Positions 43,850 through 56,029 of a stretch of 64,000 nt of DNA are shown here, piece after piece. Under the pieces are notes generated by a model. That model worked only from the letters and a program-made list of their open reading frames with translations. It made no database searches and was not told the DNA's origin. Position numbers and translations under genes: made by a program. This DNA comes from Escherichia phage vB_EcoP_PE006, in sequence record OQ938541.1, one strand, 5' to 3'. Numbering within the stretch: position 1 is the stretch's first letter; every line of letters begins with the position of its first letter.

Positions 43850-44005
43850 TCAATGTGTGTGCATCCAATTCAATCCAATCTGACAATCAGATGCCAGAGG
43901 ACATTCCATGTTCAAGTACTCACCAGCTTTCTTAACACAAAGCTCGGTATGTTCTTTGAGTTTATGTACATCATTACGGTTCACTGAGAATTGGCCCTCA
44001 TCCAT
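43850..44005 (-). CDS. DNA polymerase C-terminal fragment (motif C region), separated from the main pol ORF
   Basis: Manual translation MDEGQFSVNRNDVHKLKEHTELCVKKAGEYLNMECPLASDCQIGLNWMHTH; resembles the T7 DNA polymerase C-terminus around the catalytic DE of motif C. An in-frame TAA directly precedes the ATG. Below the track's length cut-off. Confidence 0.5.
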   Translation of the reverse strand: MDEGQFSVNRNDVHKLKEHTELCVKKAGEYLNMECPLASDCQIGLNWMHTH

Positions 44006-44122
44006 TTATGTTATTCCCAAATTACTTCGGGTATCGGACTATATCATAACAGCATAGCTAATTTGCTGTTGTTGGCGCTTCGAGGGTTTCCCTGTTAACC
44101 CCCTACTCCCGCAGGATAGTCT

Positions 44123-44518
44123 CTACACTTTCCACTTTCGAATCCATCTACAAGCGATTCCAAAGCTCACACCAAATCTTTCTGCAAGAGCAACACCAGT
44201 ACATTCATTATTAAGCCAGAACTCTTTAGCAGCATCCTGTCTTTCTCTGTTTCTACCAGTATTTGATTCTATGGCATGTGCACTACCTTCTAATATCTCT
44301 AGATGATCAGTGTTACAACATGCCCTATTCTTGCATTTGTGATTAACTTCGTAGCCGTCAGGAATACTTCCAAACTTCTCTTCCATGACATACCTATGAT
44401 ACATGACCCATTTGCCATTTATCACTTTTCGAAAGTAGCCATCTTTATTTAATTTGTGTGAGATAGGGATGATACATCCTGTGCTAGTTGTTTCTAGCAC
44501 TAGATCTTTCTTAGCCAT
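44123..44518 (-). mobile_element. HNH homing endonuclease gene inserted within the DNA polymerase coding region
   Basis: GYEVNHKCKNRACCNTDHLEILEG is a classic HNH motif; the ORF lies between polymerase motif B and motif C. Confidence 0.75.
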
Positions 44519-44579
44519 ATCACCTCCTAATAGCTTAGCTCGGTATTGCCCTCAACTTAATGGTCGGGTTTCACCGAGT

Positions 44580-46301
44580 TCACCAACTTTTACATGCACA
44601 ATGAAGTTTATGCATATCAATTACCTTAGCACAGCGAACCCCATCTTTCTCAATCCACTTGTTAAGGAACATCATAGCATATTTCATAACAACAGCACCA
44701 GCACATTGCAGGAGAGTGTTAAGTGCTTTATGAACCATAACTTTACCAGTGGCATCTCGTCTCATTGTAATCTTACGACCATCAACACCAATCAAGTACC
44801 CTTGAGCAGCTTTCTCTGTCATACGATCAATGAGGATTGCAATACATGGGTTCTCTGCCAAGAAACGTGCTCGCATCACTGAACCTTCGTCAGCCCCACC
44901 ACCTACAATTGAACCGAGCTTGGCATCACCAGCACCATAGTTGAATGCGTAGATAAATGTCTTAGCGTTGTCACGAGTAGGAAGACCAGCAAGTTTCTGG
45001 TTGTGGGAGTGGATATCACCTTCAAGGAGAATATCACGATACATAATAGCAGAAGCTAAACCACGCTCTGCCAGAGCTTTCTTAGCTGGATTATTCTCTT
45101 CGATTGCTTCAGCAAGCATATCCCTACACTCTTTAATGAGGTAGTGTGCAAGCATACGCAATTCTAATCCAGAACCATCATACCCTAAGAATACTTCTTT
45201 ACCAGCGGGTATGTAATATTTGTAAGCACCTACAGGTTTGTCTTTCTTCCCCGGCTTACCTTTCTCATAAATTACGTTAGTACCTTTTCGTATATAACAA
45301 CCATCAGGAACAACGTTAGTAATAACGAAAGGACGAGAGTGATCATCATCTGAGTTATAGTCAGATTCAAACAAACTGCGACACTCGTGACCAAACAAAC
45401 CACGGGAGGGAATATTAACCACGATACGATGTTTGAATCGAAAAGTCGGCGTAGCGCAGCTGTTAGCTTCTGCCGAAAGTTTACCATCTTCGCGTTCCTT
45501 TGCTATGAGTCCACTAATAAGACCTAGCCTGTGAGCCGCTACAACGCGTCTCTTAAGCAAACTTCCGACACTCCCTAGCTCACCCCCTAACCCTTCTTCA
45601 AGAGTCTCCTCGAGGTTTGTAGGAGCTGTAGGCCACTTGTTTGAGGTAGCTAGTGCTATCTTAATCTCATCAAAAGTGATAGGTCTACGTCGGTTAGGAT
45701 TTAAACCTAAACCAAATACATAAGCCTTCATATAGTTCTTAGTCTTAAACCTAAAATGCTTCTCTAAGAACTTCCTAATATCAGCGTCAACCATCTCGGC
45801 TGTCTGCTTCTGTTTAGCATTACCTCGCATCCAAGCTGAATACCATGCTTGGTATGTTCCATACTTTCGCATATCTTTCTTGATTTCAAAAGTATTCCAA
45901 GGCTTCTTAGATACGTTAAACTCTGGAGGAAGAAAGCCCTCATCCATAAGGGCTTCTTTAACTCGTGCATCTTTCGATGGGTCAAAGTCCACGTATTCAA
46001 CACAGGTGAATGCTCCACCAATGTCTTCTCTCTTAAGACCAACTCTATCACAATAGGCTTGAGGCCACTTCTGTAAAGCTCCAGACTTCTTAAATGGCTT
46101 CATATAAGTAGAGCCATCTAATCTCATCTTAGGTAAGAGAGGAATCAGTTCTTTGTCAATATTAACAATAATCTCTTTAAGGAGGTGAACATACCACCGA
46201 GCATTTCTTCGGTTGAAACTCACTCCGTGCTTCGCTTGCTTAGAGATTATATCAGCGACAGTCATCTCTGTCAAAAATGGGAGAGCGTCCGGGTTGCTCA
46301 C
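44580..46301 (-). CDS. DNA polymerase, family A (T7-like), polymerase domain with motifs A and B
   Basis: Motif A DGSGLELR and motif B RDNAKTFIYAFNYGAGDAKLG closely match T7 gp5 (DASGLELR; RDNAKTFIYGFLYGAGDEKIG); ORF stops before motif C. Confidence 0.85.
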   Translation of the reverse strand: MSNPDALPFLTEMTVADIISKQAKHGVSFNRRNARWYVHLLKEIIVNIDKELIPLLPKMRLDGSTYMKPFKKSGALQKWPQAYCDRVGLKREDIGGAFTCVEYVDFDPSKDARVKEALMDEGFLPPEFNVSKKPWNTFEIKKDMRKYGTYQAWYSAWMRGNAKQKQTAEMVDADIRKFLEKHFRFKTKNYMKAYVFGLGLNPNRRRPITFDEIKIALATSNKWPTAPTNLEETLEEGLGGELGSVGSLLKRRVVAAHRLGLISGLIAKEREDGKLSAEANSCATPTFRFKHRIVVNIPSRGLFGHECRSLFESDYNSDDDHSRPFVITNVVPDGCYIRKGTNVIYEKGKPGKKDKPVGAYKYYIPAGKEVFLGYDGSGLELRMLAHYLIKECRDMLAEAIEENNPAKKALAERGLASAIMYRDILLEGDIHSHNQKLAGLPTRDNAKTFIYAFNYGAGDAKLGSIVGGGADEGSVMRARFLAENPCIAILIDRMTEKAAQGYLIGVDGRKITMRRDATGKVMVHKALNTLLQCAGAVVMKYAMMFLNKWIEKDGVRCAKVIDMHKLHCACKSW

Positions 46302-54108: not shown

Positions 54109-54117
54109 TCTTATTCC

Positions 54118-55473
54118 TTAGTTATTTGTTTCCATGTCAAAAGAGATTCCACGACCCGCTTCATCGGCAAACCGAACTGTACGGGTTTGAGGCTGCAATA
54201 CTTCAGGGTTGTTAGCAACAAACCGATCAGCGAGACTGCGGCTGACGGTCTCAGCTAATTCACCATGAGAAGGGATATTAAGATCGGCGAGATTATCAAC
54301 CACATCTTGGGCCACGTCTTCATCAATCCATACAGCCCTAACAGGTGCGTTGAAACTCTGACCAGAGAACTGGTGACGGCTAACAGTCAAACCATTTGAT
54401 TGATCATTAGAACGTCTAGACAACCACTGCTCAAATGAATCGCCAGTAACACCAAGAGCTTCTTCAAAAGATGTTCTACGAGTAGAGCTTAGATTTCGTG
54501 ACTCTTGTGCTCGGCGCATTGCAGGGGCTACAAACACCCCTTCAATTGCATTGTGCCGATTAGGTTCATCTTCTCGACCAAGGAGATCTCCTCCTGTATT
54601 AGTTGTTAAGTTTGTCAATCCTTCAGACCAATACGCACGAATCTGGCTAGAGCCATGAACACTTGACATTAACTGAATCTCTTCGTAAGGTATTCCAAAG
54701 AATCGACTCATGTCTCGGTTAACACAATATTGAGCACTTGTTGTATCCTCGATAAGAGCAACCTGACCATGTTCGTTGACCAGATGACTAACCGGCTGAG
54801 GTGTGGGAAGGTATCGAGTTTGGGCCATATATTGATATGCAACAGATGGAGCTGAGAATCTTAACACTTGTGAATTAGGCCACTTTTTGTGAACGTATCT
54901 GATTTCACGACTAGAAACAACCACAGGGCAAGGAGCGGTCATAGCTAAATATCCATGAGGAGTCATGAATAAATTGTCAAGAGTCATCGCACCACGACAC
55001 ATCATAGGAAAATTATCCAATACCTCTTCAATAGAAGTAGGATAATTAAACATGAATTGGATACGAACCCCATTCCACTGAAATTCAATGATATCAGTGA
55101 ATGTTAATTGAGAACCCCCAGCATAGGATTCGTCTGTAGATTCAGCAAGAAGGGATGCATACTCGATATCTTGTGATTCAAGCCACTCTTTCACATTGCT
55201 TTCAATCTCTCGTCCAAGAGCTTGCCAACGATCAACTGTAGTGAAAGTATTTTGAGTCCCTGGCGTCTGTCCTCTGACAATGAAGATATCAATATCGTGA
55301 GGTGCTGTGTTATTAAGCACGGCATCACGAACAGCCCCACCAGTAATGATGGGACAGATACTGTCTGGAACCAAGTTGTTGTTAATCAGCTGTTCAATGA
55401 AATGACGACCAACAGTAATATCAGGTTGTTGAGCAACCTTATCTTCAATTTGGTTAATCGGGATAACAATCAT
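54118..55473 (-). CDS. nucleotidyltransferase (Pol-beta superfamily; CCA-adding / poly(A)-polymerase-like head), start at internal Met
   Basis: ITGGAVRDAVLNNTAPHDIDIFI matches the GG.VRD...D.D signature; start moved to MIVIPINQ... (1 nt after the upstream stop) to avoid a 56-nt overlap. Confidence 0.55.
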   Translation of the reverse strand: MIVIPINQIEDKVAQQPDITVGRHFIEQLINNNLVPDSICPIITGGAVRDAVLNNTAPHDIDIFIVRGQTPGTQNTFTTVDRWQALGREIESNVKEWLESQDIEYASLLAESTDESYAGGSQLTFTDIIEFQWNGVRIQFMFNYPTSIEEVLDNFPMMCRGAMTLDNLFMTPHGYLAMTAPCPVVVSSREIRYVHKKWPNSQVLRFSAPSVAYQYMAQTRYLPTPQPVSHLVNEHGQVALIEDTTSAQYCVNRDMSRFFGIPYEEIQLMSSVHGSSQIRAYWSEGLTNLTTNTGGDLLGREDEPNRHNAIEGVFVAPAMRRAQESRNLSSTRRTSFEEALGVTGDSFEQWLSRRSNDQSNGLTVSRHQFSGQSFNAPVRAVWIDEDVAQDVVDNLADLNIPSHGELAETVSRSLADRFVANNPEVLQPQTRTVRFADEAGRGISFDMETNN

Positions 55474-55474
55474 T

Positions 55475-56029
55475 TTACATTTTCCAATATAATGAAGGTG
55501 GGTCGTAAGGATCAAATCCCGTGAGTTCACACAAGAAAAGATAAACCTTAACGGTTAAGTTAACGTCCTGTTCACAATAAGTAAACATATCTTCAGTGAA
55601 AGCATCCCATGCTTCCTCTTGCTCACCGTAGTCTCCTTTAAGTTCCTCTAAGAACTCACCCCATTGCTTCAAACCATGACCTCTTGGGCCATGTCTAGGG
55701 TCGCCTTTCGGATACTCAGGACTGTCACCAATACGGTCAGGTTTAAGATATCGACTAAGACACAAGGTGTCGAAGACGTTAAAATGATATTTAATCAAAG
55801 AAGGATACATCTTCTTCAGAGCAGGTAAGTCGAAGTCAATAATGTTATGACCAACGAGCACATCAGCTTCTGTAAGTTTACGAATCCCATCTTCAATTTG
55901 GTGAGGCCGATAGCCCCACCTTTCACCAGTTTCAACATCGAAGATATAAATACACCATACTTTAGTTATGTCATCGTACAGTGCATTACTCTCGATATCA
56001 AATGCAAACACTTTCTTTTTCTTTACCAC
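55475..56029 (-). CDS. DNA polymerase 3'-5' exonuclease domain protein (T7 gp5 N-terminus-like), encoded separately from the polymerase domain
   Basis: Exo [12 protein letters not shown] and Exo [15 protein letters not shown] plus YRP, paralleling T7 gp5 (DIEANAL...YRP...HNGHKYDVPAL); ORF ends after ~184 aa. Confidence 0.7.

Follow-up and report, generated by a model that had tools for sequence, protein, structure and literature searches.

A probable mobile group IA2 intron in motif C of a T7-type phage DNA polymerase gene

The introns in gene 5 of phages phiI and W31, with their endonuclease I-TslI, were reportedly described by Bonocora and Shub in 2004. These introns occupy Pol I site 881, bear an HNH gene whose open reading frame (ORF) lies in P6a, and are cited for the criterion of subgroup IA2, a P7.1 and a P7.2 joined by G-U-A (PMC3428280). 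Family A polymerase genes of other phages have group I introns elsewhere, at site 674 (SPO1, SP82, Bastille and Pf-WMP3), at site 676 (phiL7) or in motif B (Bas93 and Bas94). Here we analyze a window of 64,000 nucleotides (nt), the whole stretch from Escherichia phage vB_EcoP_PE006 (record OQ938541.1), in which a T7-type family A polymerase gene is very probably interrupted in motif C by a mobile 607-nt group IA2 intron. The insert is an intron of the phiI/W31/K1F type, which shares their codon of insertion but is carried by a phage of another family, and will not surprise a specialist. The finding is real but ordinary: introns of this kind were first described in T7-like phages, and the separation of exonuclease and polymerase genes that accompanies it is a known trait of the group. 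Its value is modest and it leaves current understanding unchanged.

In a nucleotide comparison the window shares 97.9% identity with the Kuravirus Escherichia phage pEC-N1203-2Af.1 and 94-97% with many other phiEco32-like coliphages (Kuravirus, Gordonclarkvirinae); its source is best placed as a phiEco32-like coliphage of the genus Kuravirus, subfamily Gordonclarkvirinae. A sequence-only reading of the locus had singled out four ORFs, coding for an exonuclease, a polymerase, an HNH protein and a short motif-C fragment of 51 codons, and all four are present on the minus strand in the list of ORFs (Table 1). In the intron-free relatives 172-1 and Bas92 the polymerase is encoded by a single uninterrupted ORF of 1845 nt, or 614 amino acids (aa). 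Set against this gene, the window carries one precise insertion of 607 nt and nothing else. The insertion separates the His codon of motif C from the Asp codon that follows it (MH/DE, the slash here and below marking the junction), in the context ...GATATGCAT/intron/GATGAGGGC. Joining the two exons yields a protein of 614 aa that is identical to the 172-1 polymerase at 609 of 614 positions. Its residues 421-614 align to residues 496-704 of T7 gp5 with an E-value of 1e-32, far beyond chance. The junction lies inside motif C, which reads VIDMH/DEGQ in the window and AWVH/DEIQ in T7. Aligned to T7 gp5, the joined protein displays motif A (DGSGLELR), motif B (RDNAKTFIYAFNYG) and motif C (MHDEGQ), and only once the exons are joined do the three motifs reside on one polypeptide.

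The exact boundaries modify two statements of the earlier reading. It had the polymerase ORF stop just before motif C; the interruption is indeed at motif C, but the exon ends at 44610, after the motif C His, and the ORF reads nine codons (KLHCACKSW, then a stop) into the insert. The 51-codon ORF, translated there as MDEGQ...GLNWMHTH, does encode motif C, but its ATG (44005..44003) consists of the last 3 nt of the insert, and the true second exon encodes DEGQ...HTH, 50 aa. In the Kuravirus-group copies, as in that of Edwardsiella phage DT115P1, the intron ends in an AUG that shares the frame of exon 2; most T7-like copies have AAG or UAG in its place. Gene callers report a 51-codon "DNA polymerase" fragment because the intron ends in this in-frame AUG. 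Taken alone, that ORF has no Pfam match.

The insert has the architecture of a group IA2 intron. P1 pairs the end of exon 1 with a guide inside the intron, and the core contains P3 (GUUGGUG with CGCCAAC), P4 (CUCGGU with ACCGAG) and P7 (GACUA with UAGUC), with no P2. The IA2 signature is present as UCCUGCGGGA-GUA-GGGGGUUAACAGGGAAACCCUC (44116..44082). The HNH ORF takes up intron positions 92-487 and is looped out of P6a, with a Shine-Dalgarno sequence of its own (AGGAGG, 44528..44523); its last codons (about 13 nt) carry the 3′ strands of P6a and P6 (44135..44128), and its UAG stop overlaps J6/7. The sequence-only reading had counted about 180 nt of non-ORF sequence around the HNH gene and had considered this short for a ribozyme core. 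Our count is 91 + 120 = 211 nt, and together with the 3′ end of the HNH ORF, which supplies the 3′ strands of P6 and P6a, these flanks suffice for a compact core.

Comparison with homologues supports the same structure. Using the intron as query, 57 phage records were matched. The insert recurs at 85-100% nucleotide identity in six other Gordonclarkvirinae (pEC-N1203-2Af.1, 1-6af/1-6bf, FH3, PAS59, SU7 and ECBP2), being 100% identical in the isolated and propagated phage OQ540978 and 85-95% identical in five others, and it is also found in Vibrio phage Vp_R1 (Grimontviridae). At 65-68% nucleotide identity over most or all of its length it occurs in T7-like Autographiviridae, among them K1F, 13a, Bas102-104 and Sekstaphage-1, as well as phages of Yersinia, Klebsiella, Salmonella, Aeromonas and Edwardsiella. 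The metagenomic contig scaffold_8 of ENA ERZ28629128 (189 kb) has this HNH intron at the identical site, His/Asp-Glu of a Kuravirus-like polymerase (841..3700 of the stretch examined), which suggests that the lineage is also present in a much larger, uncharacterised phage genome. In this contig and in all 13 extracted copies the insertion lies between CAT (His) and GAyGAr (Asp-Glu); the 13 introns measure 598-647 nt and their ORFs 131-139 aa.

Covariation was assessed on an alignment of 11 ORF-deleted intron copies, from which RNAalifold independently recovers P1, P3, P4, P5, P6, P6a and P9. Over the full structure, including the P7 pseudoknot, 99.6% of the cells form standard pairs, with compensatory changes in 14 of 42 pairs. 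None of 500 shuffles reaches the observed values, and 3′ partners slid by 1-3 columns pair at only 30-48%. One position of P3 shows three types of pair, four pairs of P9 have changes on both sides, and P7.1, P7.2, P8 and P9 fold in every copy despite sequence differences. The U·G pair at the splice junction is found in all 11 homologues. The distal pair of P1, which involves the exon base 6 positions upstream of the splice site, is A-U in the Kuravirus group and Vp_R1, where the base belongs to a Met codon, and G-C in the T7-like phages, where it belongs to a Val codon. This exon-guide pair covaries with the host gene, and the ribozyme has therefore been kept under selection to recognise its present host exon. 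The guide is re-tuned to each host exon. The lineage is a clean case in which to study the targeting, by a homing endonuclease, of a site held constant by enzyme function. The precise gap relative to intron-free relatives, the canonical splice-site nucleotides, the covarying IA2 core and the homology to T7-like gene 5 introns at the identical codon bear out the earlier suggestion of a group I intron that harbours an HNH ORF, like those of certain T7-like phages.

Detailed comparison with the T7-like gene 5 introns was made on K1F, 13a, Bas102, Sekstaphage-1 and vB_Yep_15. These IA2 introns share with the window intron the host gene family, the point of insertion after the motif C His, the lack of P2, the placement of the ORF in P6a, the P7.1-GUA-P7.2 arrangement and an ORF of 131 aa. 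Pol I site 881 is this motif C His. The two differ in host phage, a Kuravirus (Gordonclarkvirinae) for the window and Autographiviridae for the T7-like introns, and in the flanking exons, ATTGATATGCAT/GATGAGGGC in the window as against GCATGGGTGCAT/GATGAGATT; the guide is altered to match, from GUGCAC in the T7-like copies to GUGCAU in the window. In addition, the window intron has a longer P5 and a shorter P7.2. The introns of the other Gordonclarkvirinae, of Vp_R1 and of the metagenomic contig show no difference of substance from that of the window. The same catalytic codon holds a single intron lineage in phages of at least three families (members of Autographiviridae, Gordonclarkvirinae and Grimontviridae) and in an unclassified contig of 189 kb. 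Of the 81 phage records that contain the 3′ part of exon 1, 9 have the intron, a patchy distribution that fits a mobile element.

The 131-aa HNH protein is the putative homing endonuclease of the intron. It is 54-61% identical in amino acid sequence to intron ORFs of the same size in T7-like phages and in Vp_R1, with 54-60% for the ORFs of K1F, 13a and Bas102, which are of equal length. Besides HNH_3, Pfam detects a weak zf-His_Me_endon match. A sequence search of the PDB with this protein returned chance matches only, with no solved close relative, and a large protein search returned 70 clusters, none with an informative name and none giving a direct link to I-TslI.

Several points weigh against the assignment. 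Rfam at its gathering threshold gives no match over the whole window. The covariance-model search proposed in the earlier reading does match Intron_gpI (RF00028) at minus-strand positions 44202..44015, with an E-value of 5.7e-5 when 1.5 kb is searched and of 0.0024 over the whole window, but its 28.7 bits fall short of the gathering score, which is 50. Neither P7 nor P7.1 varies in the sample, where covariation is silent on them, and P7 is placed by the consensus GACUA/UAGUC alone. The link to phiI and W31 runs through K1F, 13a and Bas102 and the description in PMC3428280, with T7-like genomes as stand-ins. Finally, splicing and endonuclease activity are predictions from sequence. Regarding the Rfam score, the Intron_gpI hit is the sole match at E <= 0.05 across the 64-kb window, the model covers the ORF-interrupted core poorly, and the polymerase intron of Bas93, whose record gives a join, likewise scores low on it (32.1 bits).

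The alternatives differ in how, if at all, the polymerase pieces would be brought together. A free-standing HNH gene might have been inserted into a truly split polymerase, with a 573-aa protein that lacks the motif C Asp-Glu and a 51-aa peptide started at the ATG at 44005 reassembling without splicing. In its favour, each fragment can be called as an ORF, database records list the two as separate "DNA polymerase" coding sequences, and the last 3 nt of the intron are an in-frame AUG in the Kuravirus-group copies. This AUG, however, lies just 3′ of the P9 hairpin with no clear Shine-Dalgarno sequence, and is AAG or UAG in most T7-like copies; a cut between His and Asp would part the metal-binding Asp from the rest of the palm; and the 211-nt flanks form a complete group I core with the U·G pair, the terminal G and strong covariation, none of which a free-standing gene has reason to keep. 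We regard a split polymerase as very unlikely. The sequence-only reading had offered a truly split enzyme as an alternative to an intron, and this applies to the separation of exonuclease from polymerase, not to the polymerase and motif-C pieces, which intron removal would join.

That stop codons break the ORF could also indicate a decaying gene, a polymerase inactivated by the insertion whose pieces persist as pseudogene remnants while a host or other enzyme carries out replication. We consider this extremely improbable: the exons retain 99% protein identity to the intact gene of relatives, without frameshift or internal stop, every ribozyme helix is intact in the window copy, and the same insert is carried by the propagated phage and the five others noted above. 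The probability is close to nil for an intein or split intein, a "fractured gene" from which the HNH insert would be spliced out as protein. Inteins too can contain homing endonucleases, and split inteins are known from fractured polymerase genes (PMC2677866). Here, the reading frames refute an intein: the insert is out of frame, with a stop nine codons past the exon end, and the HNH ORF occupies a different frame, behind a Shine-Dalgarno sequence that belongs to it. Moreover, exon 2 begins with Asp rather than Cys, Ser or Thr, and Pfam finds HNH-type domains only, with no intein (Hint) domain.

Under the intron interpretation, the transcribed RNA would fold into P1, with its U·G pair, and a P3-P9 core with P7.1 and P7.2 and no P2. 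The intron would then bind guanosine, excise itself and join 44610 to 44002, with an expected ligated junction of ...GAUAUGCAU/GAUGAGGGC, also written ...GAUAUGCAU/GAUGAGGGCCAA. The spliced messenger RNA (mRNA) would encode one 614-aa polymerase with the HDE of motif C intact. Intron removal is expected to work because a viable isolate carries the 100% identical intron in its essential polymerase gene. In mixed infections the HNH protein would cleave or nick polymerase alleles that lack the intron, close to the point of insertion, and their repair would copy the intron into them. There is a slight chance, less even than that of a split polymerase, that unspliced mRNA is used as well, the in-frame AUG giving rise to a 50-residue motif-C tail that complements the 573-aa truncated polymerase; with the exonuclease and thioredoxin this would make a three- or four-polypeptide replicase tolerant of splicing failure.

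These results bear on annotation. The records of K1F, 13a and Bas102 give the polymerase coding sequence as a two-piece join around the HNH gene. Kuravirus-group records with the insert mostly list two "DNA polymerase" or hypothetical fragments and an HNH or hypothetical gene, with no spliced gene, and the correct product of these fragment pairs would be one spliced 614-aa polymerase. The word "intron" is absent from the papers checked on Kuravirus-like (C3-morphotype) phages, PMC9965538 among them.

The introns of the SPO1, phiL7 and Bas93 types resemble that of the window, for which splicing and homing are predicted, in being self-splicing, in having nicking or cutting homing endonucleases and in occupying the most conserved catalytic motifs; they differ in insertion site and, in the case of Bas93, in endonuclease family. 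Bas93 and Bas94 contain a distinct 706-nt group I intron in motif B (KTFIY/AFNYG) with an endonuclease VII-type ORF (1751..4301 of the Bas93 stretch), and this type of intron is not present in the window. Since it sits in motif B, the Kuravirus-group polymerase gene hosts at least two independent introns. With both, the gene provides natural pairs at 95-99% identity, one member with an intron and one without, that are suited to work on homing and fitness. The extra length of SGF2-type relatives was considered as a further intron and rejected, as it consists of small genes downstream of an uninterrupted polymerase gene.

The second feature of the locus is the separate exonuclease. The earlier reading described a stand-alone gene, about 9 kb from the polymerase, that matches the exonuclease domain of T7 gp5, and the Pfam match, the gp5 alignment and the stop codon of its own agree with it. 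The protein aligns to T7 gp5 residues 3-178 (E 1e-11), with conservation of the acidic positions in Exo I (DIE), Exo II (HNxxxFD) and Exo III (YxxxD), and is 32.7% identical to the N-terminus of T7 gene 5 in a tblastn comparison. Following transcription, its gene precedes that of the polymerase by about 9.2 kb, and it overlaps the 3′ end of the primase/helicase gene (57813..56023); directly after primase/helicase is also the place of the T7 exonuclease domain, the N-terminal part of gene 5. Instead of being fused to the N-terminus of the polymerase, the exonuclease is a separate ORF of 184 aa, and it presumably acts as a separate proofreading subunit. This arrangement is an already published trait of the clade: all Kuravirus-like phages, together with the relatives 7-11, Privateer, Vp_R1 and BUCT695, encode polymerase and exonuclease domains separately (PMC9965538).

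For both window proteins T7 gp5 is the best relative of solved structure, and they conserve motifs A, B and C and Exo I-III. T7 gp5 combines exonuclease and polymerase in a fusion and uses host thioredoxin, whereas the window phage has separate genes and a thioredoxin of its own (51102..51428, minus strand; Pfam E 2.1e-13). Searched against the PDB, the N-terminal 299 aa of the polymerase give a weak match (E 0.65-0.7) of residues 63-134 to T7 gp5 residues ~290-362, too weak to place the break point on gp5; the gp5 stretch 295-362 in this weak alignment overlaps the thioredoxin-binding loop. The phage thioredoxin and the weak gp5 alignment fit the published guess that in C3-morphotype phages the polymerase partners with a phage-encoded thioredoxin (PMC7881722).

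Table 1. Positions of the polymerase pieces, intron elements and associated ORFs in the window
Feature	Position	Strand	Description
Polymerase exon 1	44610..46301	-	564 codons; GTG start after AAGGAG; thumb, fingers, motifs A and B; ends ...V-I-D-M-H, last base T (U)
Polymerase exon 2	43850..44002	-	50 codons and stop; starts GAU GAG (catalytic Asp-Glu, motif C), ends ...NWMHTH and stop; aligns to T7 gp5 654-704
Group IA2 intron (very probable)	44003..44609	-	607 nt; begins AAACUUCAUU, ends ...AUAAAUG (terminal G at 44003)
P1 hairpin	44594..44615	-	Exon AUGCAU (44615..44610) with guide GUGCAU (44599..44594); 6 bp, U·G at splice site
P10	44604..44600 and 43998..44002	-	UCAUU (44604..44600), directly 5′ of the guide, can pair with exon 2 GAUGA (44002..43998), as read from sequence
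Core, 5′ half	44530..44587	-	P3 5′ strand 44587..44581; P4-P5-P4′ 44578..44539; P6 and P6a 5′ strands 44538..44530
Core, 3′ half	44016..44121	-	P7 5′ strand 44121..44117; P7.1 44116..44107; GUA; P7.2 44103..44082; P3 3′ strand 44077..44071; P8 44070..44049; P7 3′ strand 44041..44037; P9 44031..44016
Exonuclease ORF	56029..55475	-	184 aa; Pfam DNA_pol_A_exo1, E 1e-8
Polymerase ORF	46301..44580	-	573 aa; Pfam DNA_pol_A, E 1e-13
HNH ORF	44518..44123	-	131 aa; Pfam HNH_3, E 8.6e-12, residues 40-76
51-codon ORF	44005..43850	-	Aligns to T7 gp5 C-terminus once joined to the polymerase

From about 42.5 to 58 kb of the window every gene is on the minus strand, and no transfer RNA or transfer-messenger RNA genes were found in the window. 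The roughly 9.2 kb between the exonuclease and polymerase genes hold a nucleotidyltransferase-like ORF, a dCTP deaminase, a ferritin-like protein, the thioredoxin, ThyX, a stand-alone ligase domain Ia, PhoH and several small ORFs. The nucleotidyltransferase-like ORF (54118..55530, 470 aa) sits just 3′ of the exonuclease gene and has its real start probably at the ATG at 55473; its weak match to the head domain of poly(A) polymerase or CCA-adding nucleotidyltransferase (E 9e-4) is below the Pfam cut-off. The ferritin/Dps-like protein (52001..52600; Pfam Ferritin, E 2.7e-7) is encoded inside a nucleotide-metabolism block. The ligase-related product (49370..49693) is a stand-alone protein of 107 aa made up of only the NAD+-binding N-terminal domain Ia of NAD-dependent DNA ligase (Pfam Nlig-Ia, E 2.7e-35).

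Among the small ORFs of this region, also on the minus strand, four of 65-69 aa (53377..53574, 53168..53377, 52959..53168 and 50896..51105) look like paralogues by eye; they share the pattern ...TR..AR..KK.M...S[IL]H...V[YH]Y, and three of the four are in tandem. Two adjoining ORFs of 83 and 94 aa (47190..47441 and 46904..47188) have similar C-terminal halves (GKFISY...PFPKG), an apparent tandem duplication, and the name "autotransporter adhesin" given to one of the pair in the records of relatives looks like a mis-annotation.

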